From: a virus
Reading direction: 5' to 3' (one strand)
Virus record (IMG/VR): IMGVR_UViG_3300047323_000675
Length of the DNA: 64,000 nt
In this document: piece by piece, positions 5,964 through 63,984 of the stretch
Layout: every line of letters starts with the position of its first letter
Position numbering within the stretch: position 1 is the stretch's first letter
Position numbers and translations under genes: made by a program
The notes under the pieces: generated by a model
What the model saw: only the letters and a program-made list of their open reading frames with translations
What the model was told of the DNA's origin: nothing
Databases searched by the model: none

Positions 5964-6488
5964 TTGTTAAAATATAAGTACACTATTTGGGAATTAAAAA
6001 TGGAATATAAATTGGAAGATCTATCTATTCATCCTAAAATATTAGCAGAGAATAAATATAATAAATTTAATGATAGCACTAAAAGATATAACGAAGAATA
6101 TATGGAGTCATGGCAAAAAACCATTTATAACGATTATGGAAAAGCTTATTTCATAAATTTTAATTTTTATAATATGACTCATATTTATTCGCAACATAAG
6201 ATAAAAGGAAATCCATATTCTTGGGAAGCCGATTTACAGTTTAATTCACTTGATAATGATATGACAGTAAATATCAAAGTTTTTGGAACTCATCGTAATT
6301 TGCATTCTGTGGAAAATTTTTGTGAAAAAATGTTTAATCAAATGCAGTTTAAAAATTATGATTATTACAGTGATGAAGATGAGTATAAGCATAAAAAAGG
6401 TTTAGAAGTTATTAATGATGTAAATGAATTAGAAAAAGAACTGCCAAAATCAAATACTAAGAAAAAGAATACAAAAAGAAAAATTTAA
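5964..6488 (+). CDS. Hypothetical protein with basic C-terminal tail (likely ATG start at 6000)
   Basis: ORF followed by terminator; ends ELEKELPKSNTKKKNTKRKI. Confidence 0.75.
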   Translation: MLKYKYTIWELKMEYKLEDLSIHPKILAENKYNKFNDSTKRYNEEYMESWQKTIYNDYGKAYFINFNFYNMTHIYSQHKIKGNPYSWEADLQFNSLDNDMTVNIKVFGTHRNLHSVENFCEKMFNQMQFKNYDYYSDEDEYKHKKGLEVINDVNELEKELPKSNTKKKNTKRKI

Positions 6489-6558
6489 AAAGGCTCCGTA
6501 AGGGGCTTTTCTTTTATATATATTTTAATATTCTTAACTTATATTAAAATATATACAT

Positions 6559-7017
6559 ATGAAAAATAGATTAATTATTCAAAAAACAGATTCTGATTGT
6601 GGATTAGCTTGTATTACTATGATAGCAGAATGCCCATATGAAGAAGTATTATCTAATTTTATGAAATTAGGATTATATGGGAAACATAACAAAACTCGTC
6701 CTTATGCTACTAATTTTAAAGATGTAAAAAGTATTTTATCTAGCTTAGGCTTTGAAGGAAAAGTGAAAAAATTTAAAACTTGGGATGAAATTAATTGTCC
6801 ATCAATTGTAAAAATTCCCAATGGTAGAAAACGCTCTTTTCATTGGATTGTTGCAATACCACATTCTGAGCATAAAGTAGTAATATATGATCCATGTTTT
6901 GAATTTTTAAGTTATTTTGAAAATCCGCCATTAGATGAAGCATATATTGATCCTAATAATTTTATGGGAAAATTTAAACCAAATGGTTCATTTATTGCAT
7001 GCCAAAAAATAAAATGA
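6559..7017 (+). CDS. C39-like (papain-fold) cysteine peptidase
   Basis: QKTDSDCGLAC catalytic Cys motif, HWIV His and IYDP Asp motifs. Confidence 0.8.
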   Translation: MKNRLIIQKTDSDCGLACITMIAECPYEEVLSNFMKLGLYGKHNKTRPYATNFKDVKSILSSLGFEGKVKKFKTWDEINCPSIVKIPNGRKRSFHWIVAIPHSEHKVVIYDPCFEFLSYFENPPLDEAYIDPNNFMGKFKPNGSFIACQKIK

Positions 7018-7150
7018 TATGACTTAAGTTATCTAGACTTCATGTTAAAAATTGATATAATTAAATAATTAATAAGCTGAAATAATGAAGTTGAAAAATT
7101 ATAAAAAATTTAATAATAAAAAAATCAAATAAAAGAAAGTATAGAAACAA

Positions 7151-7564
7151 ATGCAGAAAAAGATTATCCCAATAGAAGAACAATTAAGTTATTATTTAAG
7201 AGAAGGAAGTGGAATATTTGCATATGCTTTAGCAAAGTTATTTAATCAAGGGAAAATTTATATCCTTTCAGATTTATATGGCGAGGATTGGAGTGATGAT
7301 ATACCATATGAAGTAACACATGTTTATTTCTCACCAGATAGAAAAATATTAATAGATGCTAAAGGTCGTAGAACTGAATCTGCAATGGCGAAAGATTTTG
7401 CTTTGGCAGGAGGAAATTATAAAATAATTGGCGGATTTGAACCAAATGATTTTAAGAAACATTTCATGGGGTCATCTAATAAATATCCATTATTTGGGAA
7501 AAACTCTGATATAATACTAGCTCAAGAATTAATAAAGAAATACTCAAACATTTACTTATTATAA
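7151..7564 (+). CDS. Hypothetical protein
   Basis: 137-aa ORF; HVY...IDAKG motif. Confidence 0.7.
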   Translation: MQKKIIPIEEQLSYYLREGSGIFAYALAKLFNQGKIYILSDLYGEDWSDDIPYEVTHVYFSPDRKILIDAKGRRTESAMAKDFALAGGNYKIIGGFEPNDFKKHFMGSSNKYPLFGKNSDIILAQELIKKYSNIYLL

Positions 7565-7568
7565 GAGG

Positions 7569-11382: not shown

Positions 11383-12435
11383 ATGCACGATTTAACCTGT
11401 AAAGAATATATAGAACTTATCAATAGTTTAAATTTACCATCAAGAAATAGACAAGTCCTTTTCCAAAAAATTAGATATGGTGGTGGAGTTATTAATGCTA
11501 GTTTTGGCGATCAACTTGTTTTTAATTCAAACACTTATGCAACAAGCTATTTCGTTAATGATGTTTTTACTAATTTAGGTAAGGATTTTTACCATTTACT
11601 AAAATATAGTAAATGGAAGAAAGAATTTATAGACGCAATTCCTAACTTCTTTAGTAATACTTCAGGCAGTAAAAAAAATGAATACTTTACTAAAATTTAT
11701 GAAGTAATAAAAAAATCAGAAGAATTAAATTTAAAGAGTTTAGAAAATAGGAATTTTTTTCTCAAAATCTTTCATATTGCTGTAAATATTGAAGCAAAAA
11801 TTGAAGAAGACTCTATTGTTAAAATAATGTATGACATGTTCAAAGATAAAGAGAATATTGATTTAGATTTATTTAAAGAAATTTTTGCTCTTTATATTGA
11901 AAAAATAAAAACAGATGCAAAGTACCAAAAAAGAATTAATGATATTAAAGCTTGGGCTGCAACTCAAGATTTTACTGAATTAACAAAGAAATATAAAAAT
12001 ATTCGTAATTATTTTGATGATTCGAATGAAGAAAAGGTATTTACTGCATCATCAAAAAAGTATGATTTAAAAGCTATTGCAAAACAAAATAAAACTAAAT
12101 TAAGTGTTATTCAGCAAAATTTTAATGAATTAAATAATTTTATTAGTGAAAAATTAAAAACTAATGAAAATATTCAAGATTTTATTATCCGTGATGAAAA
12201 AATATTCTATAAGGTATTGATTGTTTACGATAAAAGAGATTTTGTAATTAATGCAGCAATTAAAATGCATGAATCATTCTTTGCAATGATTAAAGGTAGC
12301 GAATCGCTTGAAAAAGAATTGATGTATTCTCTATGGGATAAATTAATGATGAAGGCAGATCTTGAAAGTAGTTTTGCAGAAGCCAATAAGGGAACAGGTC
12401 AAATAGAGGCTCCTCGTAAAATTACAAAATTATAA
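11383..12435 (+). CDS. Hypothetical protein, paralogue A of a tandem pair
   Basis: MHD.TCKEYIE start and QDF.EL.KKYKNIRNYF shared with 12522..13562. Confidence 0.85.
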   Translation: MHDLTCKEYIELINSLNLPSRNRQVLFQKIRYGGGVINASFGDQLVFNSNTYATSYFVNDVFTNLGKDFYHLLKYSKWKKEFIDAIPNFFSNTSGSKKNEYFTKIYEVIKKSEELNLKSLENRNFFLKIFHIAVNIEAKIEEDSIVKIMYDMFKDKENIDLDLFKEIFALYIEKIKTDAKYQKRINDIKAWAATQDFTELTKKYKNIRNYFDDSNEEKVFTASSKKYDLKAIAKQNKTKLSVIQQNFNELNNFISEKLKTNENIQDFIIRDEKIFYKVLIVYDKRDFVINAAIKMHESFFAMIKGSESLEKELMYSLWDKLMMKADLESSFAEANKGTGQIEAPRKITKL

Positions 12436-12521
12436 TTAAAAAGCTCACAATTTTGTGGGCTTTTTTGTTTTCCTAAGATTTTTAATTATAATTATATTAA
12501 TAATAATTGAAGAGTTAAATT

Positions 12522-13562
12522 ATGCATGATATGACTTGTAAAGAATATATTGAGATTATTGATGGACTTGATATTAGCTTAATTTCTCGTGGTGCTTTGT
12601 ATGACTTAATTAATTATACTAAAGATGGAACTTTAGATAAATTATTTGTAATGGATGTTATTGATTCAGAATATAGTTTAGTCTCAGAAGTTTTTAGACA
12701 TGTCGGACAAGATATTGAACCCTTTCTTCAATATCGAAAATGGAAAAATAAATTTATAGCAGTTGCTCATAACAAGCTCGGTGAAAGCTTTGGACATGAA
12801 AAAAATTTATTGTTTACTAAAATATTTCAAATTTTTAAAAATTCACCTAATTTAAATTTAAAAGAAAAAGATAACCAAGATTATTTTCTTAATTTATTTA
12901 AAAAATCTGTTGAATTAAGAGCTAAAAATGAAGAACAGTCAGTAGTTCATGTTTTATATAGCTTATTTAAAGAAAAAGAGGAACTTACTAAAGAATTTCT
13001 TAAAGAATTATTTGCTATCTATGTAGATAACATAAAAACTGATCCTAAATATCAATATAGAATAAAAGAGATAAAAGATTGGGCTATAAATCAGGATTTT
13101 AGTGAATTATCAAAAAAATATAAAAATATCAGAAATTATTTTAATACTGATTTAAGTGAAAAAATATGTGAAGCATCTGTCAAAAGATATGATTTAAATG
13201 ATATTGCTGAAAAAACAAAAACTAAATTAGTATGGATTGAAGAAAATTTTAATGCCATAACTAAATTAGTAGATAAAAAATTAATAGGAAATACTAATAT
13301 TCATAATTTTGTATGTATAGATGAAAAAATATTTCATAAAGTTATTCTAGTTTATGAAAAAAGAGATTCTATTGTTGAAGCTGCAACAACTATTCATGAT
13401 GTTTTCTTTTCTATGATAAGTAAGACTAAATCTTTAGAAACTGAATTGATAGAAAATTTATGGGAAAAATTATCTTTAAAAGCTGAAATTGAGGCTGATT
13501 TTAATAAACATAATAAACAACATCCCAAACCAAATGTTTCTACCAAAGTGCAGAAGATTTAA
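12522..13562 (+). CDS. Hypothetical protein, paralogue B of a tandem pair
   Basis: Full-length similarity to 11383..12435. Confidence 0.85.
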   Translation: MHDMTCKEYIEIIDGLDISLISRGALYDLINYTKDGTLDKLFVMDVIDSEYSLVSEVFRHVGQDIEPFLQYRKWKNKFIAVAHNKLGESFGHEKNLLFTKIFQIFKNSPNLNLKEKDNQDYFLNLFKKSVELRAKNEEQSVVHVLYSLFKEKEELTKEFLKELFAIYVDNIKTDPKYQYRIKEIKDWAINQDFSELSKKYKNIRNYFNTDLSEKICEASVKRYDLNDIAEKTKTKLVWIEENFNAITKLVDKKLIGNTNIHNFVCIDEKIFHKVILVYEKRDSIVEAATTIHDVFFSMISKTKSLETELIENLWEKLSLKAEIEADFNKHNKQHPKPNVSTKVQKI

Positions 13563-17166: not shown

Positions 17167-17751
17167 TTATAATTTCAATTTTTTGTGATTTTTATCGGTA
17201 TTAATTTTAATGTCTTTTTGTAATATCAAATGCCAATATTCTGGTTCATCATATGGTCTTCCTTCATAATAGAACTCAACATTATTTTGTTCTACGATTG
17301 CAGGCCCATCTTCCCTATGTAGTTTTCCGAAGACTATCCACATTGTTTGTTCACCAACAGAACAAAATGCTGGTTCGTTATTTGGATTATGTAATTGTCC
17401 ATTATAATACCAAGCATAGCTTCCATCCGAATCAATTCTGGCTGGACCATTTTCACGATGTAATTGATTATTTTTATACCAAAACATATCACCATTAGGA
17501 TTTGTTGTCGTAGGATTATCGCCATCACGATGCCTTTTACCATGCTTCCACCATTCTTTTCTACCATCTGAATAAATAATAGCTGGCTCATCATTATCTC
17601 TATGAAGTTTTCCCTTAAAATACCATTCTTCAGTCCCATCAGCATGAATAATTGCAGGGCCATTTATTCTATGTGGTTCTCCATTAACTTCCCAATGTTT
17701 ATCACCACAACTACCAATTCTTGTTGGATTATCTATCATAATTAAATGCAA
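17167..17751 (-). CDS. HRxDGPA beta-repeat protein (array 1, gene 6)
   Basis: Tandem WYxNGxLHRxxxPA repeats; basic tail HKKLKL. Confidence 0.85.
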   Translation of the reverse strand: MHLIMIDNPTRIGSCGDKHWEVNGEPHRINGPAIIHADGTEEWYFKGKLHRDNDEPAIIYSDGRKEWWKHGKRHRDGDNPTTTNPNGDMFWYKNNQLHRENGPARIDSDGSYAWYYNGQLHNPNNEPAFCSVGEQTMWIVFGKLHREDGPAIVEQNNVEFYYEGRPYDEPEYWHLILQKDIKINTDKNHKKLKL

Positions 17752-17779
17752 AATATTAAATAAAAAATTATACCATAAT

Positions 17780-18775
17780 TTAAATTTTCAACTTCTTTTT
17801 ATCTATAGAATGTTTTTTATCAACTTCATTATTTAATTGGAAATACAAGAATTCTTTTTCTGTAATCTTTTCATTATTAACCCAATATTCAATATCTCCA
17901 TTTTCATATATAACAGCCGGTCCTGTAAGCCTATGCTTATTGCCTTTAAAATACCATTCTTTTTTATCTCCTGGAATATAAACTGCTGCTTCATCATTGG
18001 GGTTATGAAGAACGCTTTCACAATACCACTTATATCCGCCATCTTTAAAAATCATTGCTGGAGCATTATCTCTATGAATATATCCTTTGTTATACCAAAA
18101 TTTATCGCCATTTGCGAAAATAATTGCAGGCTTGTCATTATCTCTATGAATTTCACCATTTTGATACCAATATTCTGAACCATGTTTATCTATAACAGCA
18201 GGCTTATCTCCATCTCTATGGTATTTATCATTTATATACCATTCCTTAGCTCCATTATCATTTATAATAGCAGGTAAATCATTATCTCTATGAATTTTTC
18301 CATGTTTATACCAAATTTGCTCTCCGTCAGGATCAATAATTGCAGGAAGATCATTTTCTCTATGTTCTTTACCATTTATTACCCAAGCTTGAACTCCATC
18401 TGAATGAATAACAGCAGGTTTATCACCATCTCTATGAACATCACCATTTTTATACCACATTAATTTACCATCTTCTTTGATAACTGCTGGCTCATCACCA
18501 TCTCTATGAAGCTCTCCATCTTTATACCATTCTTGTTTACCATTTTTATAACTAACTGCTGCTTCAGTTAAACAATGTAATTGACCTTCAAAATACCATT
18601 TAGTAAATTCACGACTAATAATAGCTGGTCCATCAACTCTATGTAACCTTCCATGTTTGTACCACTCTTGTCTGCCATCTTTACTAATAATAGCTGGACC
18701 ATCTTCACGATGATGTAAACCATTTAATAGCCAATGTTCAATTCCATTCTGATTAATATATTCTATTTTATCCAT
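17780..18775 (-). CDS. HRxDGPA beta-repeat protein (array 1, gene 5)
   Basis: About 12 WYxNGxxHRDxDxPA repeats; tail KKKLKI. Confidence 0.9.
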   Translation of the reverse strand: MDKIEYINQNGIEHWLLNGLHHREDGPAIISKDGRQEWYKHGRLHRVDGPAIISREFTKWYFEGQLHCLTEAAVSYKNGKQEWYKDGELHRDGDEPAVIKEDGKLMWYKNGDVHRDGDKPAVIHSDGVQAWVINGKEHRENDLPAIIDPDGEQIWYKHGKIHRDNDLPAIINDNGAKEWYINDKYHRDGDKPAVIDKHGSEYWYQNGEIHRDNDKPAIIFANGDKFWYNKGYIHRDNAPAMIFKDGGYKWYCESVLHNPNDEAAVYIPGDKKEWYFKGNKHRLTGPAVIYENGDIEYWVNNEKITEKEFLYFQLNNEVDKKHSIDKKKLKI

Positions 18776-18776
18776 T

Positions 18777-19226
18777 TTAAACCTTTAACTTCTTTTTTCC
18801 AAATTCATCGTTTGTAGTTAACTCAATATTTAATTCATTATTTAATTTAAATCTATTAAATTCATGCTCGGTATATTCAATGCCATCAATGTACCATGAT
18901 AATTTACCTCTTGGATGAATTATTGCAGGGCCATCTATTCTGTGTGGTATACCATTTTTGAACCATTCTTGCATAGCACCATTTTGCATAATTAAAGCCG
19001 GACCATTTTCCCTATGTAAATCCCCCTTTTGATACCATCCTTGATTACCATCTTTGAAAACTACAGCAGGTAAGTCATTATCTCGATGTAATTTCCCTTT
19101 TTGATACCATTGTTCTGTTCCATTTTTAGTAATGACAGCAGGCAAATCATTATCTCTATGAAGTAATCCATTTTTATACCAAACTTGACTACCGTTCTCG
19201 TCTATTTCCATTATTTCATCAGCCAT
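18777..19226 (-). CDS. HRxDGPA beta-repeat protein (array 1, gene 4)
   Basis: Same repeat; tail KKKLKV. Confidence 0.9.
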   Translation of the reverse strand: MADEIMEIDENGSQVWYKNGLLHRDNDLPAVITKNGTEQWYQKGKLHRDNDLPAVVFKDGNQGWYQKGDLHRENGPALIMQNGAMQEWFKNGIPHRIDGPAIIHPRGKLSWYIDGIEYTEHEFNRFKLNNELNIELTTNDEFGKKKLKV

Positions 19227-19234
19227 AATAATCC

Positions 19235-19837
19235 TTATATCTTTATTTTCTTTTTAACTGAAGCACTATTGATATTTAAATCTTTTGTTAATTTTTTATG
19301 CAATTTGATTGCATTAAATTCTTGTTCAGAATACTGAACTCCCCGAATCCAATATTCTTTACTACCATCAGCTTTAGTAATAGCTGGTCCATTTAAGCGA
19401 TGTCTTTTACCACGAAGCCACCATTCTTCACATTTATTTGCATGAATAATAGCTGGTTTACCTTTTCTATGATATTGCCCATTAACTGCCCATACTGTTC
19501 TTGCTCCACGAACATACATTGCTGGCTCGCCATTAGGATTATGTAATGAACCATCTTTATACCATGCATAAGAACCATCTTTTTCAATTTCTGCGGGTCC
19601 ATTATCTCTATGTTTTAAACCGTTTTTGAACCAATTTTTAGCACCATCAGCAAATATGATTGCAGGCTCATCATTATCTCTATGAAGTAATCCATTTCTA
19701 TACCATTTTTTTAAACCACCAACATAAATTTCAGCAGGACCATCTTCCCGATGAGATCTACCATTAACTTTCCAAAATTGATTACCTAAAAGATCTTGTT
19801 CATATATTGGTTCTTGCTTCTCTACTTTTTCATTCAT
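19235..19837 (-). CDS. HRxDGPA beta-repeat protein (array 1, gene 3)
   Basis: Same repeat; ATGA overlap with upstream gene; tail KKKIKI. Confidence 0.9.
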   Translation of the reverse strand: MNEKVEKQEPIYEQDLLGNQFWKVNGRSHREDGPAEIYVGGLKKWYRNGLLHRDNDEPAIIFADGAKNWFKNGLKHRDNGPAEIEKDGSYAWYKDGSLHNPNGEPAMYVRGARTVWAVNGQYHRKGKPAIIHANKCEEWWLRGKRHRLNGPAITKADGSKEYWIRGVQYSEQEFNAIKLHKKLTKDLNINSASVKKKIKI

Positions 19838-20598
19838 ATTTTAACTTTTTTAATTATATTTTTTTTATTATTTAAATCTTCAAATTCTAATTCTTTTTCA
19901 AGCATATTTTTAATAATTTCATAAAAATTTTCTCTGGTATATTCTTTCCCATCAATCCAATACTCTGATTTTTGATTGTTAATCATTGCTGGACCATCTA
20001 AACGATGTAACTTGTTATATTTATACCATTTCTCATGACCATTATGAGTTATAACTGCTGGTTTGCCATCTCGATGACAAAATCCATTGTGATACCAATA
20101 TTTATCACCATTCGCATCTATAGTAGCAGGTAAATCGTTATCTCTATGCCATTCACCATTTTTATACCACTCTTGTGAACCATCTGCTTTAATTACTGCT
20201 GGTAAGTCATTATCTCGGTGAAGAAATCCATTTTTGTACCATTCTTTAGTTCCATCAGCTTTAATAATTGCAGGTAAATCATGATCTCTGTTTAATTGAC
20301 CATTTTGATACCATTTTTGTGTTCCATCATTATAAATGCCAGCAGGCATATCATTATTTCTATGGATTAATCCTCTAATTCTCCATTCTTTAGTGCCATT
20401 TGAGTCAATAACAGCAGGAAGATCATTATCTCTGTGAAGTAATCCTTGTTGATACCATAATTCAAGTCCACCAGGAATAATCCTCGCAGGTCCATCTTCA
20501 CGATGAAAGAAACCACCCGCTTTCCAAGTTTTAACTCCATTTTCTAATAATTCATAAACAGGATTTTCCCAATCTATATCGTCCCATTTTACTTTCAT
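19834..20598 (-). CDS. HRxDGPA beta-repeat protein (array 1, gene 2)
   Basis: Same repeat; ATGA overlap; tail IKKVKI. Confidence 0.9.
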   Translation of the reverse strand: MKVKWDDIDWENPVYELLENGVKTWKAGGFFHREDGPARIIPGGLELWYQQGLLHRDNDLPAVIDSNGTKEWRIRGLIHRNNDMPAGIYNDGTQKWYQNGQLNRDHDLPAIIKADGTKEWYKNGFLHRDNDLPAVIKADGSQEWYKNGEWHRDNDLPATIDANGDKYWYHNGFCHRDGKPAVITHNGHEKWYKYNKLHRLDGPAMINNQKSEYWIDGKEYTRENFYEIIKNMLEKELEFEDLNNKKNIIKKVKI

Positions 20599-21020
20599 AA
20601 TTTCATTTTCTTTTTATTAATTATTTTTTCGGTAAGTTCTTTATTTAAGCTAATAGCATTAAACTCCTGTTCAGAAATTTTTATGCCATTAAGCCACCAA
20701 GATTTAAATCCTTCGTTTGTTATTACCGCAGGTCCGTCTTCACGATGATATTTTCCATTTAAAGCCCATATAGTTGAAGCCTCAGTATATGAAGCTGGCT
20801 CAGTTCCTTCTCTATGAATTTCTCCATTTTTATACCATGTGAACCACCCTTTAGGATGTGTCATTGCAGGACCATTTTCTCTATGTTTTTTTCCATTCAA
20901 ATACCATTGTTCAGTTCCATCTCTTCCAATGATAGCAGGGCCATCCTCACGATGAAGCTTTCCATTTAATCTCCAAAATATATTTCCTGCTTCTTCTTGT
21001 CTAATAGGATTTTGGCTCAT
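20595..21020 (-). CDS. HRxDGPA beta-repeat protein (array 1, gene 1)
   Basis: Same repeat; tail KKKMKL. Confidence 0.9.
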   Translation of the reverse strand: MSQNPIRQEEAGNIFWRLNGKLHREDGPAIIGRDGTEQWYLNGKKHRENGPAMTHPKGWFTWYKNGEIHREGTEPASYTEASTIWALNGKYHREDGPAVITNEGFKSWWLNGIKISEQEFNAISLNKELTEKIINKKKMKL

Positions 21021-44150: not shown

Positions 44151-44788
44151 ATCTTTAATTTTTTCTTTTCAACTTCGTTATTGATTAAATCTTTCTGTAA
44201 CTCTTTTTCTAACCAATATGAATCAATAGCTTTTCTTCTTTCTTCTTTATCTACAATTTTCGCCCAGTAAACATCAAAATCTAGCGGAAATGAAGGATCT
44301 ATATATAAATTATATGGCTTCCATTTAGATAAATCAAAATTTATATTTTTCTTTTCAAACATATTGTCCATATCACTAACTTTAGATACATCCCAATTAG
44401 AAATATCGCCATTAAATTTTGAATTATAAAACATAAGATACATATCTCTTACATTAGAAACATCCCAATTACTTATATCACCATTAAACTGAGAATTTTG
44501 AAACATTCTTTTCATACTTACTACTTTTGAAGTATTCCATTTTGAAATATCACCATTAAATCTAGAGGAAGTAAACATTTGATACATACTTTCTACATTT
44601 GATACATCCCATTCTGAAATATTACCATTAAATTTTTCAGTCCCAAGGGTGGCAAACAAATTTTCCATATCTGTAATATTGCTTACATCTATATGATTTA
44701 AATCACAATTATTACCACTTTGGTAAATTTCTTCAGCAATCAAATTATGTAAGTCTCTTTGATTTTCAGCTATAACTTTAGGTTTCAT
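44147..44788 (-). CDS. BspA/DUF285-type LRR protein (array gene 5)
   Basis: Same repeats; ATGA overlap. Confidence 0.9.
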
Positions 44789-47125: not shown

Positions 47126-47145
47126 ATTTTTAATTTATATTTTCT

Positions 47146-48294
47146 TCACATTTTTAATTTTTTTGGTTTAATTACATCATTATTATTTAATTCTTTGTGC
47201 AATTCCTTTTGTAATAAATAAGCTCCGATAGCTCTTTTTCTAGCTCCAACATCGTTAAATTTAGACCAATAAGGAATTGGTGCTTCAGATAGTTCAAATA
47301 TGTTAGTTATATCTATTGCACGATATGGTTTCCAATTAGTTAAATTTTTATTAAATTTTGATTTCTCAAACATACAACTCATATTGTTAACATTTGATAT
47401 TTTCCATTTCGATAAATCTCCGTTAAACTCAGAATGAGAAAACATCTTTTTCATATTTCTAACTTTTGATACATTCCAATTTGAAATATCACCATTAAAT
47501 TTTGACTGCTCAAACATATGGCTCATATCTGTCACCTTTGATACATTCCAATTACTAATATCTCCATTAAATTCTGAACAATTAAATGTACATGCCATAC
47601 TTATAACATTAGACACATCCCAGTTACTTATATCACCATTAAATTCTGTTTTTTCAAACATGCTTGCTATATTTACAACATTAGACACATTCCATTTACT
47701 TAAATCTTTATTAAATTTAGATTCTTTAAACATTTCATACATAGAAATGACATGAGAAGTATCCCATTTAGAAATATCACCATTAAATTCTGATTTACTA
47801 AACATACCAATTAAATGTGTTGCTTTAGAAAGAACCCAATTGGAAATATCGCCATTAAATTTAGAATTAGAGAACATTTCATTTACAGTAAAAGCATTGG
47901 CAAGATTCCATTTAGATATATCTCCATTAAATATAGAATTTGAAAAAATTCTATCTAGATTAATTACATTAGAAACATTCCATTTTGATATATCACCATT
48001 AAATTGAGAATTCATAAACATTTCAATCATACCTTTTACATTAGACACATCCCATTCTGATATGTCACCGTTAAATTGAGAATTACAGAACATTCCACTC
48101 ATATCCTCTACATTGGAAACATTCCATTTACTAATATCACCATTGAATTGTGTTCCTCTAAATAGATGCCTCATTTGAGTAATATTGGATACATCAATAT
48201 GATTCAAAGAACATTCATTACCATTTATTGCAATTTCATTTTCAATTAAATTATGTAAATGCTTATTATCTTTAGCTATAATTATATTTTTCAT
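47146..48294 (-). CDS. BspA/DUF285-type LRR protein (array gene 1, longest)
   Basis: About 11 repeats; tail KPKKLKM. Confidence 0.9.
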
Positions 48295-49132: not shown

Positions 49133-49921
49133 TCAAATCTTTACATTTTTTCTACTCATCTCACTTATAGCAAGATCTTTATTCAATTCTTTATATAAAT
49201 TGAAAGAGTCAATCGCTTGTATTCTTTTCTCTTGTTCTTCAATCTCTGCCCAATAAGGAATATTTTTATAATTATTATCAAATATATTTTCAATAGAATT
49301 TAATGCATATGGTTTCCAATCAGATAAATCAGTATTAATTTTTGATTCAAAAAACATATATCTCATAATTTTTACTTTGGATACATTCCATTTAGAAATA
49401 TCACAATTCATTTGTGATTTACTGAACATTCCATCCATATTTTGGACATTAGAGACATCCCATTGACTTAAATTTGTAGAAAAATTAGTGCAAAAAAACA
49501 TACTACTCATATTTATTACATTAGATGTATTCCATTTAGAAAGGTCTTGGTTAAACTCACTATTCCAAAAAAACATACAATTCATACATTCAACATTTGA
49601 AACATTCCATTGAGAAATATTTCCATTAAATTTAGAACTCCAAAACATTTGACTCATTGTTTTAACTTTAGAAACATCCCAATTACTGATATCTCCATTA
49701 AATTTAGAATTGATGAACATTTCATTCATATTCTCAACATTTGAAACATCCCATTTAGAAATGTCACCATTAAATTTTGTGTTTGCAAATAACTCACTCA
49801 TATCTGTAATATTAGAAACATCGATATGATTTAAATCACAATTACCACCAAATTTTCTTCGTGCTTTTTTAATCAATTGTTTTAAGTGTTCTTTATCTTT
49901 AGCGATAATGGTAATGTTCAT
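49133..49921 (-). CDS. BspA/DUF285-type LRR protein (dispersed copy)
   Basis: Same repeats and caps. Confidence 0.9.
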
Positions 49922-50037
49922 ATATTATGATTAGCAAATTTTATGAAATTATAACAAATTTACTTTAAATAAGAAACTAAAAAATTTGACAATATTTTTC
50001 TTAATATATATGATTTAATAAAACTACAGGACTTAAA

Positions 50038-50331
50038 ATGAATAAGCAAGAACAATTAGCATGGGCTAAAAAAGAATTGAAAGCAATAATGGATGATTCT
50101 AATAAAACCCGTTATAAAGCACTTGTATCTACACCTAATGATTTATTGTCCCTTGAAGAAGCTTTTCTTTTTATAGCCAATTCAAAAGCACAAGCATATA
50201 AATCATCTATGCTAGGCAACTATCAACAATCTTTTAATTGGGTTAATGAAAATTCCGATATGGCCAAAAGTATTCTTCTACTACAGCAAAATATAATTGC
50301 TATTAATGATGTTGCCATGCTTCCTGATTAA
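50038..50331 (+). CDS. Hypothetical protein
   Basis: TTGACA promoter, AGGA RBS, terminator ~50341-50367. Confidence 0.75.
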   Translation: MNKQEQLAWAKKELKAIMDDSNKTRYKALVSTPNDLLSLEEAFLFIANSKAQAYKSSMLGNYQQSFNWVNENSDMAKSILLLQQNIIAINDVAMLPD

Positions 50332-50368
50332 TATATAAAAGAAAAGCCCCTAGATGGGGCTTTTTTCA

Positions 50369-50503
50369 TCAAATCTTACGCTGAACATCTTTTGCTAATT
50401 CTTGCACTTTTTCACCACCCTTTTGAACATCCTGACCAATACCACTAATAGTATTGCAACCAGTTAATCCTACTAACAATAATATCGCAAATATTTTTTT
50501 CAT
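50369..50503 (-). CDS. Entericidin EcnA/B-family lipoprotein
   Basis: Manual translation MKKIFAILLLVGLTGCNTISGIGQDVQKGGEKVQELAKDVQRKI; lipobox LTGC then NT..G.G.D; AAGGAG RBS. Confidence 0.85.
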   Translation of the reverse strand: MKKIFAILLLVGLTGCNTISGIGQDVQKGGEKVQELAKDVQRKI

Positions 50504-50615
50504 CAAAGACTCCTTAGTTATAATGAAAATATAAAATATTTTTATAGAAATGCAATTATTGTAATCATATTCTTTTTTGGTAAAATATTATAAATAATAT
50601 ATTTAGAGGAAAAAA

Positions 50616-51305
50616 ATGGCAAAGAAAATAAAGCATCCATATATTTTAGATACAACTTATCAAGTCTATGAAAATGGTCAGTTTGATGAATTAGAAAATG
50701 TTATAGTTAAAATTTATGAATACACAGATAAAGCTGAGGAAGAACAATTAGATCTTGACGAAAGAAAAGATTACTTGGAAATTAGAATGAAAAGAATTAT
50801 CCCAAGCAGAGAAATAAACGATGTATTAGACATTGCAGATAGTGACAGTGCTGAACTTTTACATGCAATAGCTCCAATTTTAAAAGAAGGTCATGAAGAA
50901 TTCATTGCTAGTGCTTTAAAAATTGATGACTATATATTATTAGATAAATATATTTATATTGATACTATTGAAAAACATGGTGATTTCTTAGAACAATCTA
51001 TTCCTGCTGCAATCTCTAGAGCGTTAACTGTAATAACAAAAGGTTTAGAACCTGAAGATTGGGTTGCAGTTATGTATGAGGCTCACACAATATCTGAACA
51101 AAATAATGAAGTTGATATGAAGAGGAATAAAGTTGGTTCTATACTTAAAAACTTAGGATTCCTTGCTTTACCTGAGGTAGTATCTAATGTAGAAAAAGAG
51201 CATAATGTTCTTAATATTGTAGGTGGAAATACCTTAAATAAAAATTTAGAGTATTCTCCTGAATTGCTAGAAGAAAAGAAAAAAGATAAAAAAATTAAGC
51301 CTTAA
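50616..51305 (+). CDS. Hypothetical acidic protein
   Basis: GAGG RBS; terminator ~51307-51330. Confidence 0.75.
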   Translation: MAKKIKHPYILDTTYQVYENGQFDELENVIVKIYEYTDKAEEEQLDLDERKDYLEIRMKRIIPSREINDVLDIADSDSAELLHAIAPILKEGHEEFIASALKIDDYILLDKYIYIDTIEKHGDFLEQSIPAAISRALTVITKGLEPEDWVAVMYEAHTISEQNNEVDMKRNKVGSILKNLGFLALPEVVSNVEKEHNVLNIVGGNTLNKNLEYSPELLEEKKKDKKIKP

Positions 51306-51329
51306 ATAAAGCCCCTTAATGGGGCTTTA

Positions 51330-52121
51330 TTATATTTTTATTTTTTTAAGTTGAATATCATTTTTAATCAAATCATTATCCAACTCCTTATTTAACCAAT
51401 ATTTATCAATAGCTTTTTTTCTATCTTCGTTATCATCATAATTAGCCCAATAAGGAATTGGAGCAATAGACTCTTCAAATATTGTTAATGCAGCTTCAAA
51501 CATTAATAAATATGGTTTCCAATTAGACAAGTCTCCATTAAATTCTGATCTAGAAAATAATCCTGGAGCATTTTGTAAGCTAAAAACATTCCAATTACTT
51601 AAATTGCCATTAAATTTAGAATCAGAAAACATAGAATTCATATTTTTAACTTTTGACACATCCCATTGACTTATATCACCATTGAATTTTGAAGCCCAAA
51701 ACATGGCTATCATATCTTTTACACTAGATGTATTCCATTTAGAAATATCACCATTAAATTCAGAATGAGAAAACATATGTCCCATATGATGCACTTGTGA
51801 TACATCCCATTTAGATATCTCTCTATTAAATTCAGAGTTGTTAAACATTCCTATCATACTCTGAACATTAATCACATTCCATTGGCTTATATCACCATTG
51901 AATTTAGAACTATCAAACATGCAATTCATGTTAATAACATTAGAGACATCCCATTGGCTTATGTCACCATTAAATTTTGAATCATAAAATAACCTTTCCA
52001 TATCCTCTATCTTTGAAACATCAATATGATTCAACTCACATTGATTTCCATTAAGTGCAATCTCATTATTAATTAATTGTTCTAAATGTTCTTTATTTAT
52101 TGCGATAACTTTAGGTTTCAT
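51330..52121 (-). CDS. BspA/DUF285-type LRR protein (dispersed copy)
   Basis: Same repeats and caps. Confidence 0.9.
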
Positions 52122-52705
52122 ATCTTCATTCTTTTACTATTATTTCCTTCATTACTTAAACTATCATAAAGTTCTTGTGCTTGAACAAATTTTTCATAAC
52201 GGTTTAATATTCCAGGAACAAATTGCTTAGATCTATCTTGCATAAGATAATAGTCTTTTTTAATCCTTTCAATATAAGGACGAATATCCATTTTATAATC
52301 AAAAACTAAATACTCAAGCATATGTTTTGGAGCTAGGTTGAAACAATACATACAATCTAAACGAGCATAATCTTTTGTTTTAGCATCAGTTAACAAGAAT
52401 TTAGCAGATTCTACTGCACCTTCCTGAACAGCACATCTTAATGCTTCATTACATTTTTGCGGTAAGTTAATCTCCTTTGGAAATTCGTCAATAAAATATT
52501 TAATAATATCTAAGTGACCATCACCAGCAGCCAATATAAAAGCCTGTTCTTTTTTATATTCTTGAATCCTACTAAAATATTCAAACTCAGTGTTCATCAA
52601 ATATTTTACAGCTTCTAAATCATTTCTTCTAGCAGCAAAAATAAGCTCATTTCCATTATCAATGCTTGGCATATGAAATAATTTCTTTTGTTCTTCAGTA
52701 ATCAT
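52118..52705 (-). CDS. Ankyrin-repeat protein
   Basis: [42 protein letters not shown]. Confidence 0.85.
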
Positions 52706-58796: not shown

Positions 58797-59180
58797 TTAA
58801 ATTTTATTTTTAACTTTGTTTTTCTTGCTTGCCACAATATCTTTAAAACTATCTTTTAAATCCCCGTAATTATCAAATATTGTTTTTATATCACTATAAT
58901 GTGTAATAGCTTTTTCTAATGTATCAGAAAACATTTTCTCCATATTAGAATGATTGCCATTCTGGCTACTGATAGAATTTTGAAATCTTCTATTAAATTC
59001 ATTTAACTCTTCAATGCTCATTTCCTTTGTTTGTTTTTTTTATACTGAGAAACCCTCTTCTTTTGTATGAATTATCTTAATATCTAAATCGGGTTCATTG
59101 TAATAAATTGAAAAGATATATTTAATTCCAAAAAAAGAAGCTTCATTTTGACTATATAATTGGTAATTTTCTAAGTTCAT
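58797..59180 (-). pseudogene. Paralogue of 58386..58790 interrupted by an in-frame TAA (59040-59042)
   Basis: ATG at 59180 gives MNLENYQLYS...LDIKIIHTKEEGFSV*KKQTKEMSIEEL...; same frame on both sides of the stop; aligns with NYQLFS...LDIKIIYSREEGF...FDNYGELKDSFK. Confidence 0.8.
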
Positions 59181-59698
59181 AATTTAGGCTTATCTTGTTT
59201 TACAGTATTTTCACTATTTAACTCATTATTTAACTCATTATTTACACTTCTTATTTTAAATAATTTTTCTACATATTCTGCCATATCATGATGAGGTGTA
59301 TTTTTAGATTCATTAAGAAAATTGTCTATATCTTTAGTGCGATTGATTTTGCAATCAAATATAAGGAACTCTAATATATCATTATAATTTCCTGCATTAT
59401 AATTTCTTAAAAAAGTTACTATAAAAGCTGAATCATTACCAACATGTATATCTGCATGTTCTGTTAGTTCATCTGATGTTAATAAATACTTAGCCAATGC
59501 TAAATCTTTGTCAATTAATGCATTTCTTAATGGAAGCCCTTTTTCACCATGAGCTTGTGTATTAATATCAGCATGTTTTGATAATTCTGGACTAGTTAAT
59601 AAATATTTAACCAATGCCATATCTTTTGATTTGCATGCTTTAATTAAGCATTCATCTAAATCATATTGATCTAAATTTTGATATTTTTCTTTGTTCAT
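59177..59698 (-). CDS. Ankyrin-repeat protein (array gene 8)
   Basis: KYLLTSPEL..HADI motif; tail DKPKL; closest to 62110..62637. Confidence 0.85.
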   Translation of the reverse strand: MNKEKYQNLDQYDLDECLIKACKSKDMALVKYLLTSPELSKHADINTQAHGEKGLPLRNALIDKDLALAKYLLTSDELTEHADIHVGNDSAFIVTFLRNYNAGNYNDILEFLIFDCKINRTKDIDNFLNESKNTPHHDMAEYVEKLFKIRSVNNELNNELNSENTVKQDKPKL

Positions 59699-59718
59699 AT
59701 ATTTAATCCTTATATTTT

Positions 59719-60234
59719 TTATAATTTATGTTTTCGTTGTTGTTCTTTTATATCTAAAGAATCACTTAATTCTTTATTTAAGTCTCGCAAATCAAACCAA
59801 TGTTTTATTTTTTTTATTAATACATCATAGTCACTACCATGCTTATGATGATTTTTATAATTTTCAATCCAATCAATTTTGTTTATTTTTAAATCAAATA
59901 TAAAATATTTTATTATATTTTCAGAAAAATTATTATATGCATAACCAAAAAAATTATTGCGTCCACTAAATGCATCAAATGGTTTTTCTATATCAGCTTG
60001 TATATTAATTTCTTTATTTAAGTTTAATAGTAATTTAAGGGCATCTACCTGATCAAATATGCAAGTGAAATCAATTAAATTATTTGTAATACTAGGATGA
60101 TAAATTAACTGTGGTGAAGTTAATAAGTATTTTATAGTATCAATTTCACCATGTTTACATGCATCAATAATTACATCATCTAATTTTTGATTAGACATAT
60201 CTTTAAATTTCAGATGTAATTTTACATTTTCCAT
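59719..60234 (-). CDS. Ankyrin-repeat protein (array gene 7)
   Basis: ACKHGEIDTIKYLLTSP; tail RKHKL. Confidence 0.85.
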   Translation of the reverse strand: MENVKLHLKFKDMSNQKLDDVIIDACKHGEIDTIKYLLTSPQLIYHPSITNNLIDFTCIFDQVDALKLLLNLNKEINIQADIEKPFDAFSGRNNFFGYAYNNFSENIIKYFIFDLKINKIDWIENYKNHHKHGSDYDVLIKKIKHWFDLRDLNKELSDSLDIKEQQRKHKL

Positions 60235-60252
60235 ATTGTTAAAATTTAATTT

Positions 60253-60858
60253 TTATAATTTAGGCTTTTTTTGTGATTCATTAATATCTAAGGATTCATT
60301 TAATTCCTTATTTAAGTCTCGTAAATTAAACCATGAAGTGATTTTTTCATCAGGGTGGTTTGTTAAAAATTCATTAATATTATTTGTTTTTTCAATATTG
60401 AGATCAAAAATCAAACAATTAACTATGTCGTATACTTTATATTGAGTGCAATAAATAAATGTTTCATCATTGTTGATATGAATATCAGGCTTGTTAATTA
60501 CTTCAGGAGAACCTAATAAATATTTAATTATTTCAACTCTATTGTTATCGTATGCTGAATATATGAATATATTATCAGGGTGTTGAGGGCAAGCATGTTC
60601 TTTTATTTCTGGAGAAGCTACTAAATATTTTACAATATCTAAATGGCCAAATTTACATGCATTTCGTAAAGGCTCATCCTCATCTGCATGAATGTCAGCA
60701 TGAAGTTTAAGTTCGGGAGAAGTCAAGCAAAATTTAACCACATCTAATTCATTATTAATACAAGCTAGAATTAGAGCATGGTTAATAGAATGTTGGTTAT
60801 TAAAGTTAATGCCTCTTTTCTTTAACTTTTGTATTAGTAAATCTGATTCATCGGACAT
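60253..60858 (-). CDS. Ankyrin-repeat protein (array gene 6)
   Basis: ACKFGHLDIVKYL; tail KKPKL. Confidence 0.9.
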   Translation of the reverse strand: MSDESDLLIQKLKKRGINFNNQHSINHALILACINNELDVVKFCLTSPELKLHADIHADEDEPLRNACKFGHLDIVKYLVASPEIKEHACPQHPDNIFIYSAYDNNRVEIIKYLLGSPEVINKPDIHINNDETFIYCTQYKVYDIVNCLIFDLNIEKTNNINEFLTNHPDEKITSWFNLRDLNKELNESLDINESQKKPKL

Positions 60859-60916
60859 AATTATCTCTTAGGAATAGTTATAATTATAATACAAAAAGAT
60901 GGTTAATCAATTTTAA

Positions 60917-61399
60917 TTATAATTTAGGTTTTTTTTGTTGACTATTATTGGTATCTAAATTTTGGATTAATTCTTGATTCAAGTCTCTCAATTCAAACCA
61001 GGAAATAGGTAGTTTATCAGGGTGATTTTTAAAGTAATTATTTACAATTTCAGTTCTTTCAATCTTTAAATCAAAAATAAGAAATTTCAATATCTCCATA
61101 TTCCCATTTGTTATGATGTCACTAAATATATGATTAATATTAGAGTTAATATCAGGATTTTCTTTTAATTCAGATGAAGTAAGCAAAAATTTCATAACAT
61201 TTAAGTGGCCACGACTAGATGCAACTCTTAATGCATAATGTAGATTATTAAGACTATTTAAATGTTTTGACAGTTCATCATTTGTTAATAGATATTTAAC
61301 TAAATCAAAATTACCATTTCTACAAGCAATATCTAAAGACTTTTTAAGATCTTTAGGATTATCATAATGATGTGTTCTGTATATTTCATTAATGGGCAT
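60917..61399 (-). CDS. Ankyrin-repeat protein (array gene 5)
   Basis: ACRNGNFDLVKYLL; tail KKPKL. Confidence 0.9.
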   Translation of the reverse strand: MPINEIYRTHHYDNPKDLKKSLDIACRNGNFDLVKYLLTNDELSKHLNSLNNLHYALRVASSRGHLNVMKFLLTSSELKENPDINSNINHIFSDIITNGNMEILKFLIFDLKIERTEIVNNYFKNHPDKLPISWFELRDLNQELIQNLDTNNSQQKKPKL

Positions 61400-61402
61400 A
61401 TT

Positions 61403-62113
61403 TTAAATTTTTATTTTATTCTGAGGTTGTTTTTGGTTATTTAGATTTAGATCATTATTTAAATTTTGAGCTAAATCGGTTCTGAGTTCTCTAGTTTTAA
61501 ACATAGATTGTACTTGCTGATTATTTGATTCTTTTAAATATTTATCAATCTGTTCAGTTTTTTTTATGAAACAATCAAATATTAAGTAATGAAGCATTTC
61601 ATTTTGTTCATGTACGCAAGCTTGGCGAAATGCGGCATCATCAGCCATATGAATATCAATTTTTTCTTTTAGTTCTTTTGAGTGAAGAAAGAAATCAACA
61701 ATATCTATATGTCCTCCTGAACAAGCAAAGGATAGTGCATTAATTTTATTATCAACTATTTTTGCATGATTTTGTATTTCATTTGATGTCATTAAGTATT
61801 TAACAATATCTAGGTATCCATGAAAAGCTGCAAATAGTATAGGTTCATCATTGTTAGCATGAATGTCCGCATATTGTTTTAAATCAGGAGATGATAGAAG
61901 ATATTTAACTATATCTAAATGTCCTTTTTGGCATGCAACTCTTAATGCTACACTTTTATTATGATTAATTTCTGCATTAACTTTTAATCTAGGTGATGTA
62001 AGTAAAAACTTAACAACATATAATTTTCCAATTTCACAAGCATTGGATAATGAATAATTTAAGTCATCAAGTGGAAAATCTTTAAATCCCTCGTATAATT
62101 CATCTTCGGTCAT
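61403..62113 (-). CDS. Ankyrin-repeat protein (array gene 4)
   Basis: ACQKGHLDIVKYLLSSP; tail NKIKI. Confidence 0.9.
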   Translation of the reverse strand: MTEDELYEGFKDFPLDDLNYSLSNACEIGKLYVVKFLLTSPRLKVNAEINHNKSVALRVACQKGHLDIVKYLLSSPDLKQYADIHANNDEPILFAAFHGYLDIVKYLMTSNEIQNHAKIVDNKINALSFACSGGHIDIVDFFLHSKELKEKIDIHMADDAAFRQACVHEQNEMLHYLIFDCFIKKTEQIDKYLKESNNQQVQSMFKTRELRTDLAQNLNNDLNLNNQKQPQNKIKI

Positions 62114-62637
62114 ATTTTTCTTTCTTTATGCTTATTCTCAGAAATAGTCATTTTTTTATCTAATTCATTATTTAATTCTTTATTTAATTCTTTATTTAAA
62201 CTTCTAGTCGTGAACATTTTCTCAACAAGTTTTTTCATCTCTATGTGATTGTGATTATTAGAAGGACTCAAAATAAAGTCTATATTTTTTGTTCGTTTTA
62301 TGTCGTAATCAAAAATAAGACATGTTAAAACATCAATTTGTTTTCTATAAAAAGCTGATCTAAAAATATCATCTGAAGCAACATGGATATCAGCATGTTC
62401 TTTTAACTCAGGCGAAGTTAATAAATAATTCGCTAATTCAAAATTTTTATAACAAAATGCTGTTCTTAACGGTTGTCCATTTTCACCATGACATAAGGTA
62501 TTAATATCAGCATGAATAGATAACTCGTTGCTAGTCAATAGGTATTTAACTAATTCAAAATCAGAATCTATACATGCATCAATTAAGTATTGGTCTAAAT
62601 CATATTGCAGTAAATTATTGTATTTTTCTTTATTCAT
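62110..62637 (-). CDS. Ankyrin-repeat protein (array gene 3)
   Basis: LVKYLLTSNEL..HADI; tail KERKI. Confidence 0.85.
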   Translation of the reverse strand: MNKEKYNNLLQYDLDQYLIDACIDSDFELVKYLLTSNELSIHADINTLCHGENGQPLRTAFCYKNFELANYLLTSPELKEHADIHVASDDIFRSAFYRKQIDVLTCLIFDYDIKRTKNIDFILSPSNNHNHIEMKKLVEKMFTTRSLNKELNKELNNELDKKMTISENKHKERKI

Positions 62638-62648
62638 GTAGTTAATTT

Positions 62649-63359
62649 TTATAATTTAGGTTTCTTTGTGATTTCATTGTTATCAGGTAAAGAATTGTTT
62701 AGCTGCTTATTTAATTCTCTAAGTTCAAACATATTTTTAGCTTCATTTACTAAGTTTCCGTTAGGATCTTCTAAGTATTTATTAATATCATCAGTTCTAT
62801 CAATGTTAAGGTCATAAATTAAATATTGAAGCGTTTTCATATCGCCAAATTCACATGCTTTTATAAAAATAGAATCTTCATGAATATGTATATTTACGGG
62901 TTCTTTTAAATCTGGTGAATTAAGTAAATAATCAACAATATCTATATTCCCCATTTGAATTGCATATTCCAATGAATGTCTTTTGATATTAGAATGTTCT
63001 TTTAAATCAGGAGAGGTTAATAAATATCTTACAATTTCAAAGTGACCTTCATTACAAGCAATGTTTAGAGTCCAATCATTTTTTGAATGGATATCAGAAT
63101 GTTCTTTTAATTCAGGCGATGAAAGAAGATATTGAATTATGTGTAATTGATTATGTTCACAAGCTTGGTGAAGTGGTTTGTCTTCTTTATAGTGTATGTC
63201 AGCATTATGTCTTAACTCAGGTGATGTCAATAAAAATTTAACTTTATCCAAGTCACCATCTATACATGCATCGAGAAGTGATTCATTTATTTGTTTTTTG
63301 GTAAATTTATGGATTTTAGAGTAAAAGTCTGAATTTTTATGGTTCATATATATTCTCAA
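62649..63359 (-). CDS. Ankyrin-repeat protein (array gene 2)
   Basis: ACNEGHFEIVRYLLTSPDLKEH; tail KKPKL. Confidence 0.9.
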   Translation of the reverse strand: MRIYMNHKNSDFYSKIHKFTKKQINESLLDACIDGDLDKVKFLLTSPELRHNADIHYKEDKPLHQACEHNQLHIIQYLLSSPELKEHSDIHSKNDWTLNIACNEGHFEIVRYLLTSPDLKEHSNIKRHSLEYAIQMGNIDIVDYLLNSPDLKEPVNIHIHEDSIFIKACEFGDMKTLQYLIYDLNIDRTDDINKYLEDPNGNLVNEAKNMFELRELNKQLNNSLPDNNEITKKPKL

Positions 63360-63372
63360 ATATTTTATAAGT

Positions 63373-63984
63373 TTATATTTTAACTTGTTTTTTACTTTTT
63401 TGGTTAGAAACTAAATTATTATCAAGATCTTTTTTTAATTCTACTTTATTAAAACAATTCTCTAAATCTTTAGAAGAGTATTGTGGATAATTAGATAATA
63501 GATGTGAGATATGATCATTTTTCCGTAGTTCAAACTCAGTAATTAAATATTTAAGTGACTTATGAGCACGAGCAAAAAATGCAGAGTGGAAAATATCTTG
63601 GAATTCTTTTTTTAAATTAATTTTACCTTTAAGTTTTGGATGGGTTAAGAGGAACTGAACAACATCTAGACTTTCTGTTGTGCATGCAGTTTGAATAGGA
63701 GTCCCATAGCTTGTATGTTTTGCATTAATATTAGCATGTTCTTGGAGTTTTGGCGATGTTGATAAAAATTTTACTGCGGTTAAATCGCCTTCACTGCATG
63801 CATTAAAAAGAGCAATATCTTTTTTAGTATGTATATCGGCTTTATAATGAAGTTTTTCAGAAGTTAATAAATATTCCATTAGTTCATAATCCCTATGAGC
63901 AAAGGCTTCTAAAAACTCTTTATTGATTTCTTTTTTATTTAAATACTCTAAATATTCAAATCTATTATATGGTCGTCTTGTCAT
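63373..63984 (-). CDS. Ankyrin-repeat protein (first array gene within the window)
   Basis: ACSEGDLTAVKFLSTSPKLQEHANI; tail KKQVKI. Confidence 0.85.
   Translation of the reverse strand: MTRRPYNRFEYLEYLNKKEINKEFLEAFAHRDYELMEYLLTSEKLHYKADIHTKKDIALFNACSEGDLTAVKFLSTSPKLQEHANINAKHTSYGTPIQTACTTESLDVVQFLLTHPKLKGKINLKKEFQDIFHSAFFARAHKSLKYLITEFELRKNDHISHLLSNYPQYSSKDLENCFNKVELKKDLDNNLVSNQKSKKQVKI

Follow-up and report, generated by a model that had tools for sequence, protein, structure and literature searches.

What does it mean when dozens of proteins, from at least a dozen unrelated families encoded in one stretch of DNA, all finish in the same way? The question is raised by the IMG/VR virus record IMGVR_UViG_3300047323_000675, from which we analysed one stretch of 64,000 nucleotides (hereafter the window), part of a 2,230,803-bp contig out of a rhizosphere metagenome. 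About half of the open reading frames (ORFs) in the window end in a lysine followed by Ile, Leu, Val or Met, and this end belongs to a longer tail with an acidic helix and a polar linker. The tail, about 25 residues long, most likely serves as a portable address tag at the C-terminus, carried by cytosolic, Sec-independent proteins that are mostly of eukaryote-interaction repeat types. On balance we lean towards the view that it acts as a Sec-independent C-terminal export signal.

The window has a GC content of about 27-28% overall (25-33% per 4-kb step), and Lys makes up 10.5% of the residues in its proteins. Greedy calling, with the tRNA array left out, gave 87 ORFs. A K-[ILVM] end is found on 45 of them, close to the 44 or so that a preliminary description of the sequence had counted by hand, a [KR]-x-[KR]-[ILVM] end on 35 and the strict form, K-x-K-[ILVM], on 33. 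Only 0.23 ORFs with a strict tail are expected from amino acid composition (binomial P = 5e-62). The strict motif has a background of 0.2% at internal positions and of 0.87% before all six-frame stops, and against the latter rate the enrichment still has P = 7e-45. None of 62 shadow ORFs has such a tail. Two doubtful cases among the 45, a small membrane protein (56606-56854) and the product of 37636-38214, were set aside, which leaves a set of 43 tagged proteins.

We aligned the 43 tails and profiled them counting back from the C-terminus. Position -1 is occupied by Ile in 21 tails, Leu in 15, Met in 4 and Val in 3, and position -2 by Lys in all 43, the set being defined by a [KR]-[ILVM] end. 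Leu (13 tails), Pro (7) and Ile (6) occur at -3, and Lys or Arg is found at -4 in 35 tails and at -5 in 36. Positions -6 to -12 form an Asn/Ser-rich linker in which Glu or Asp is frequent at -9, and Asn, Ser, Thr and Gln together provide 38% of the residues between -7 and -14. Further upstream, Leu recurs at -13, -17 and -21 (21, 20 and 14 tails, respectively), with Asp or Glu at -14 and -18 (21 and 19 tails). Acidic residues amount to 20.6% at -10 to -25 and to 0.8% in the last six residues, and the last eight residues carry a net charge of +3.4.

The upstream L.xEL.xxL pattern of the preliminary description was recovered as a helix motif when the tails were searched for the motif [LIMFVY]xx[EDQKS][LIMFV]xx[EDNKQSH][LIMFVP]. 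It is present in 30 of the 43 tails, starting at -21 or -22 in 23 of them, and in only 6 of 40 untagged proteins. Hence the tail is a module of about 25 residues in a fixed register, more than a basic end. For the product of the ankyrin gene 60917-61399, AlphaFold2 predicts one long helix over residues 129-153, with a mean predicted local distance difference test score of 94 and then 85 (85-94 up to residue 150), and a low-confidence basic tip, with a mean score of 53 over the last ten residues. A profile hidden Markov model (HMM) of the tail, run against 1.84 billion representative proteins, gave 17 significant matches (E <= 1e-3), of which 15 end exactly at the last residue of the protein; all 17 belong to families already in the window, so this search says little on diversity. 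Run against 5.8 billion proteins it returned three matches only, all from its own genome, and was uninformative, as long proteins crowd out the relatives.

In principle such tails could have no function and be a by-product of AT-rich codon bias, of A-rich initiation regions for ATGA-coupled genes (the alternative offered in the preliminary description) or of paralogue descent. The genome is indeed 27% GC and rich in Lys, 14 of the 43 tagged genes overlap the next start codon, and 29 of the carriers are paralogues in three arrays. We looked at 146 IMG/VR loci from other organisms, found with the DUF285 and HRxDGPA families and consisting mostly of giant-virus-like and phage contigs, many of them at 22-30% GC. 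Strict tails occur there in 7 of 2,917 ORFs, and in 1 of 579 at GC below 30%, against 33 of 87 in the window (P = 3e-47 and 4e-31, respectively). The rarity of strict tails in AT-rich loci with homologous families rules out AT bias. Translational coupling is ruled out too, by 14 tails, 5 before a convergent gene and 9 before a gap of more than 30 nt. Furthermore, AAG accounts for 21.7% of the Lys codons in the tail, as against 12.2% in the bodies of those genes (P = 0.0035). AAG interrupts runs of A, and its enrichment is the opposite of a mutational A-bias, which argues for selection on the protein.

Paralogue descent fares no better. BLAST of the bodies, with the last 45 residues removed, sorts the 43 tagged proteins into about 13-15 families, and the three tandem arrays hold 11 HRxDGPA-repeat, 9 DUF285/BspA leucine-rich repeat (LRR) and 9 ankyrin proteins. 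Of the earlier claim of about 44 unrelated carriers the number therefore stands and the independence is overstated; at least 13 unrelated families are nevertheless tagged. In an ungapped comparison counted from the C-terminus, identity over the last 22 residues is 22% between families and 31% within them, whereas a control segment 40 codons upstream is 6% identical between families and the bodies are unalignable. The tag is about as similar between families as within them, and it is portable across families. Synonymous codon identity between families in the tail is 0.626, compared with 0.649 expected from tail codon usage. As this is not above expectation, the likeness of the tails is kept at the protein level and does not stem from recent DNA copying.

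The Pfam-recognisable proteins of the window include TrxB, two class-3 lipase-like proteins, two DUF4116 proteins and nine DUF285 (BspA-type LRR) proteins. Also encoded are nine members of the ankyrin family, two proteins that are weakly ankyrin-like and an ankyrin protein that has a signal peptide, together with eleven proteins made of HRxDGPA repeats and many orphans (the tagged genes are listed in Table 1). Housekeeping and regulatory proteins do not have the tag; this agrees with what had been said of TrxB, LuxI, LuxR, the radical SAM protein at 56995 and the pair formed by an AAA protein and a DUF2201/VWA protein. One of the two lipase paralogues (40897-42654) ends in …KYKIR and does not match the tag. 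Similar near misses with basic ends are seen on the untagged proteins 50616-51305 (…KKDKKIKP), 35686-36513 (…TKKAKP) and 8403-9149 (…KKFSPKK), and all four ends may be decayed or variant tags.

Tagged proteins are also set apart by their N-termini. By a crude hydropathy measure of the N-terminus, used in place of SignalP, a hydrophobic N-terminus was found on none of the 43 tagged proteins of the window and on 1 of 107 strictly tailed proteins of a related locus described below (1 of 150 together), compared with 33 of 139 other ORFs (P = 1e-10). Neither a hydrophobic segment at the N-terminus nor a transmembrane stretch is present in any tagged protein of the window. Conversely, the proteins with Sec signals at 3257, 38731 and 48709 lack the tail, as had been stated for most signal-peptide proteins; the first of these, at 3257-4180, is the ankyrin protein mentioned above, which has the signal peptide and no tag. 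Substrates of the type IX, type II and type V secretion systems need an N-terminal Sec (or Tat) signal peptide, and the tagged proteins of the window have no hydrophobic N-terminus.

The tag is conserved well beyond the window. The DUF4116 protein 27637-29037 has full-length relatives at 36-63% identity in other metagenomes, and all but one of them end in K-x-K-[MI], Lys at -2 and -4 hardly varying across the alignment. The end is missing from more remote DUF4116 proteins, among them those of Chlamydiales and Naegleria. A metagenome scan with the DUF4116 alignment gave four short contigs, three of which have tagged neighbours of other families. Much richer is IMGVR_UViG_3300047323_000673 (G405), a locus of 180,807 bp that is classed as a provirus in IMG/VR, with a CheckV completeness of 28. 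It is a piece of chromosome from a relative of the window's bacterium, mislabelled as a provirus, and it also encodes ArgRS, a GGDEF protein, a photolyase-like protein and others.

The tail HMM matches G405 in 99 places. K-[ILVM] ends are found on 140 of its 237 ORFs, 107 of them strict, and spread over 23 families unrelated by BLAST. Pfam scanning of 136 tagged ORFs gave DUF285 (64), ankyrin (32) and DUF4116 (8), as well as DUF6745, an Api92-like domain, WGR, an AEP-like primase and others. Homologues in the window and G405 are only 30-57% identical, and the tag register in G405 is that of the window, with Leu at -13, -17 and -21, Glu at -14 and -18, and Lys at -2, -4 and -5. The proposal that a common tag defines a large effector-like repertoire is supported by these findings, namely by its presence on unrelated families, its retention in the DUF4116 orthologues and in the divergent G405, its absence from remote homologues, and the exclusion of Sec signals.

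The organism appears to be an uncultured, very AT-rich soil bacterium of a Burkholderiales-like lineage. The relatives of its TrxB descend in a ladder of 94, 93, 85, 82, 76, 75, 70 and 68% identity to a plateau of 63-66% made up of named Burkholderiales, and at least three closed contigs of about 2.22 Mb exist. Among sequencing runs, the DNA was traced to one, a rhizosphere metagenome that is probably the source sample, and no RNA run was listed for it. In a TrxB tree the window lies on a long branch, nearest to Betaproteobacteria, without support. When genome contigs were searched with TrxB, all the matches listed were at or below 64% identity and none was AT-rich. The lineage was not found among the 401 Burkholderiales-order and 400 class-level GTDB genomes that were searched with the DUF4116-plus-tag alignment, the TrxB of a relative and the ArgRS of G405, the order sample being identical in both searches. 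The G405 ArgRS (L168:5962-7629, - strand) lies amid tagged genes. Among 400 sampled Gammaproteobacteria (in the GTDB sense) no ArgRS is more than 39% identical to it, and only 40 of the 400 reach E <= 1e-60; it may be foreign or a second copy. No published description of such a tag was found, including for Ichthyocystis and Procabacter.

Collectively, soluble carriers of eukaryote-interaction types, the exclusion of Sec signals and a signal at the free C-terminus point to the signal of a one-step, Sec-independent exporter. Of the known systems, only type I and type IV (and type VII in Gram-positives) read C-terminal signals. From this we infer both the export role of the tag and the kind of machine that reads it. 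By analogy with known effectors, it is quite possible, if a little short of probable, that a type IV system specifically reads the tail. In such a model a common machine would recognise the tag on the ankyrin, BspA-type LRR, DUF4116 and lipase proteins alike, and the reader would most likely be a coupling-protein complex like that of Dot/Icm, which acts as substrate receptor in a one-step, type IV-like secretion system. The helix, amphipathic with Leu-x3-Leu-x3-Leu spacing and with its Glu and Asp on one face, would dock on an adaptor or on a receptor surface of basic character, the linker of Asn and Ser would serve as a spacer, and the free Lys-Lys-x-Lys-hydrophobic-COOH tip would be held by a pocket that senses the terminal carboxylate. 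The proteins would leave the bacterium, and their destination would probably be a eukaryotic host, for instance a protist of the soil.

The closest parallels are with the Dot/Icm (type IVB) signals of Legionella and Coxiella effectors. These too lie in the last 20-30 residues of soluble effectors without a Sec signal, in repertoires of hundreds of proteins in which ankyrin and LRR domains abound. The Dot/Icm signal computed to be optimal, FSSDDVLLEEEEEEEESSLLSSLKL, ends in L-K-L (...SSLKL), and changing its last Leu to Glu abolishes transport (PMC5802825); many of the tails finish with those three residues. In Legionella an acidic block (E-block) is bound by DotM (PMC5802825), and the adaptor LvgA reads an F-x3-L-x3-K helix near the C-terminus (PMC7251119), a short i/i+4/i+8 helix comparable to that of the tag. 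More generally, Glu, Ser, Lys and Asn are over-represented at the C-termini of type IV substrates, although Glu is depleted from the last four positions (PMC3915618). The tails have the same acidic and polar stretch, at about -10 to -18 and followed by a Ser/Asn spacer, with Glu scarce towards the end and absent from the last four positions, and -1 is always Ile, Leu, Val or Met. Three elements occur in the same order in both, an acidic i/i+4/i+8 helix, a polar spacer and a Φ-K-Φ-COOH end (Φ, hydrophobic).

There are likenesses to type IVA systems as well (see also PMC8714903). VirD4 recognition needs a net positive, unstructured C-terminus, as in Agrobacterium VirE2 and VirF and in the Bartonella Beps with their BID domain and basic tail. 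The XVIPCD of the Xanthomonas X-Tfe toxins is one conserved, homologous C-terminal module on otherwise unrelated proteins, and the corresponding X-type systems (X-T4SSs) occur in some Betaproteobacteria. However, the type IVA signals are Arg-rich or are domains of 100-140 residues (BID, XVIPCD), whereas the tag is of about 25 residues, Lys-based and with an obligatory hydrophobic end.

Several points weigh against an export signal read in the manner of Dot/Icm. The tag is nearly invariant and in fixed register, far more uniform than the degenerate Legionella signals, and its tip is more basic, with Lys at -2, -4 and -5 where the Legionella optimum has Ser at -4 and -5; its acidic residues are spread along the Leu helix, whereas Legionella has a solid Glu block. 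No secretion-system gene was recognised by Pfam, NCBIfam or PHROGs in the 64-kb window or in the 180 kb of G405, which includes any Dot/Icm gene and a coupling protein of the DotL/VirD4 type, and no IcmS/IcmW/LvgA-like adaptor was found with NCBIfam among ten small untagged proteins. The lineage is Burkholderiales-like and does not belong to Legionellales. LuxI and LuxR, together with large radical SAM clusters, would be unusual for an obligate intracellular bacterium, so that lifestyle and host are putative. Finally, the tip also fits a ClpX-type degron or an importin-type nuclear localisation signal (NLS). The genes for the LuxI-type autoinducer synthase and the LuxR-type regulator lie at 9390-10671 and are convergent, with an 11-nt overlap; as quorum sensing is unusual in obligate intracellular bacteria, the lifestyle may be facultative or extracellular.

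A bolder version of the export reading, which we consider unlikely, deserves mention. The tag would then be a nearly deterministic secretion code with a dedicated receptor, in a secretion system to which no such signal has so far been assigned. This could be a divergent type IV coupling complex whose pocket senses the carboxylate, or an exporter of an entirely new kind, and the bacteria would form an undescribed lineage of protist-associated soil dwellers related to Burkholderiales. Such a code would imply hundreds of effectors, taking up perhaps a quarter or more of a 2.2-Mb genome.

Of the alternatives to export, sorting inside a host, instead of or besides export, survives best, and we still regard it as improbable. 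The K-[KR]-x-K-hydrophobic tip would in that case act as a classical monopartite NLS or as a polybasic patch for membranes. The last six residues match K-[KR]-x-[KR], which we take to be the monopartite consensus, in 24 of the 43 tails, and the tip presumably resembles the signals of c-Myc and SV40. The positive charge of the tip and the ankyrin and LRR carriers, typical of host-directed effectors, would also suit such a role. However, an NLS or lipid patch needs neither the extreme C-terminus nor a terminal hydrophobic residue nor a helix at a fixed distance, 19 of the 43 tails are off the consensus, and a single destination for lipases, LRR proteins, ankyrins and many orphans is unlikely. 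An export signal would still be required, and nothing else is common to the carriers. With regard to other host signals, the peroxisomal targeting signal 1 (PTS1) motif [SAC]-[KRH]-[LM]-COOH is found on none of the 43 tails and a dilysine end (KKxx or KxKxx-COOH) on two.

Less probable again is recognition by an AAA+ unfoldase or protease, by which unsecreted or surplus proteins would be short-lived or handed to a chaperone. The degron by which ClpX recognises MuA, the transposase of phage Mu, is a C-terminal RRKKAI (PMC8138137), and the KKxK[ILVM]-COOH tip is similar to it, being a basic run with a hydrophobic last residue, strictly C-terminal as is a signal read at a free C-terminus by a ring ATPase. 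However, C-terminal degrons for ClpX include no conserved upstream helix or fixed spacer, and MuA is a single regulatory substrate, whereas over hundreds of kilobases about every second gene encodes the tag and its carriers have eukaryote-interaction domains and are not regulators. On such a scale a degron would be sensible only as an adjunct to export. Export, packaging and degradation had all been put forward in the preliminary description, and of the three we lean towards export. A role as a tag for packaging into virions or particles is argued against by the lack of structural phage genes in the window, where PHROGs recognised no virion protein among ten untagged proteins.

A shade less probable than a degron is a type I signal, which an ABC transporter would recognise as it does on ankyrin and tandem-repeat proteins in Ehrlichia and Orientia. 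Type I signals are C-terminal and uncleaved and often contain an amphipathic helix, the Ehrlichia ankyrin proteins are type I substrates (PMC3417381), and the window encodes a stand-alone C39-like peptidase domain. According to Delepelaire 2004, as cited in PMC3417381, type I signals are rich in the residues LDAVTSIF and poor in KHPMWC. The last 50 residues of the tagged proteins show the reverse, with 41.8% LDAVTSIF against a window average of 48.2% and 24.8% KHPMWC against 20.9%, and hundreds of substrates per genome would be atypical for a type I system. The peptidase domain (Peptidase_C39-like, 152 residues, E = 4e-9) is encoded at 6559-7017 on the + strand, directly after the tagged orphan 5964-6488 and without an ABC transporter. 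Last, a tail without function has next to no probability, as the trivial explanations fail and the controls described above refute it.

With regard to what an export signal would offer, the signals of type IV effectors are notoriously degenerate, and effector repertoires are guessed by machine learning and then tested protein by protein. Here a lineage of uncultured bacteria with closed 2.2-Mb genomes marks roughly every second gene product, over hundreds of kilobases, with one sharply defined tag of 25 residues. Should this be an export signal, a complete effector catalogue could be read from sequence alone, a defined peptide of 25 residues could be used as bait for the receptor, and the divergent loci would be a natural experiment on the co-evolution of signal and receptor. 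The filing of the G405 effector island as a provirus also implies that such arrays contaminate viral catalogues.

Table 1. Tagged genes of the window, with the ends of their products where recorded
Feature	Position	Strand
Orphan, 174 aa, ends ...KKKNTKRKI, no Pfam family	5964..6488	+
Two paralogous 350-aa proteins, no known family, weaker tag (…PRKITKL, …STKVQKI)	11383..13562	+
Six tandem HRxDGPA-repeat (MORN-variant-like) genes, all tagged (…KKKLKI, KKKLKV, KKKIKI, KKVKI, KKKMKL, KKLKL)	17167..21020	-
Class-3 lipase-like protein, 569 aa, ends …TNGKKI	21957..23666	+
Five further tandem HRxDGPA-repeat genes, all tagged	24380..27292	-
Two DUF4116 proteins, ends …KRKMKM and …KRKPKM; tag kept in orthologues of other metagenomes	27637..30417	+
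Orphan, 407 aa, ends …KPKRPKV, convergent gene next	32065..33288	-
Four tagged genes: orphan 33391, paralogue pair 33969/34530, weak ankyrin-like 35066	33391..35674	+
Weak ankyrin-like protein, paralogue of 35066, ends …NKSLKI	39596..40252	+
Seven tandem DUF285 (BspA-type LRR) genes, all tagged	42691..48294	-
Two DUF285 genes (49133-49921, 51330-52121) and one ankyrin-family gene (52118-52705), all tagged	49133..52705	-
Two small tagged orphans, 134 and 74 aa	58386..59021	-
Eight tandem ankyrin-repeat genes, all tagged	59177..63984	-

Untagged genes are interspersed with those of Table 1. Two of them, 50038-50331 and 50616-51305 (+), lie inside the stretch that holds the last two DUF285 genes. 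Two R2K-clade ATP-grasp proteins, of the peptide-ligase type, are encoded at 30782-31639 and 35686-36513 (+), amid tagged genes. An ESM Atlas search with the orphan at 11383 gave nothing usable.

The overlapping pair at 13891-17054 (-) consists of an AAA ATPase (574 residues) and a putative metallopeptidase of the DUF2201 type that matches VWA weakly (491 residues). The pair matches the phage families phrog_1297 and phrog_1314, and no homologue of it was found in the 180 kb of G405. Fourteen tRNA genes (13 by Rfam), all of them tRNA-Tyr(GTA) or tRNA-Glu (TTC, with one CTC), are densely packed at 54421-56139 (-), the GC-richest part of the window.

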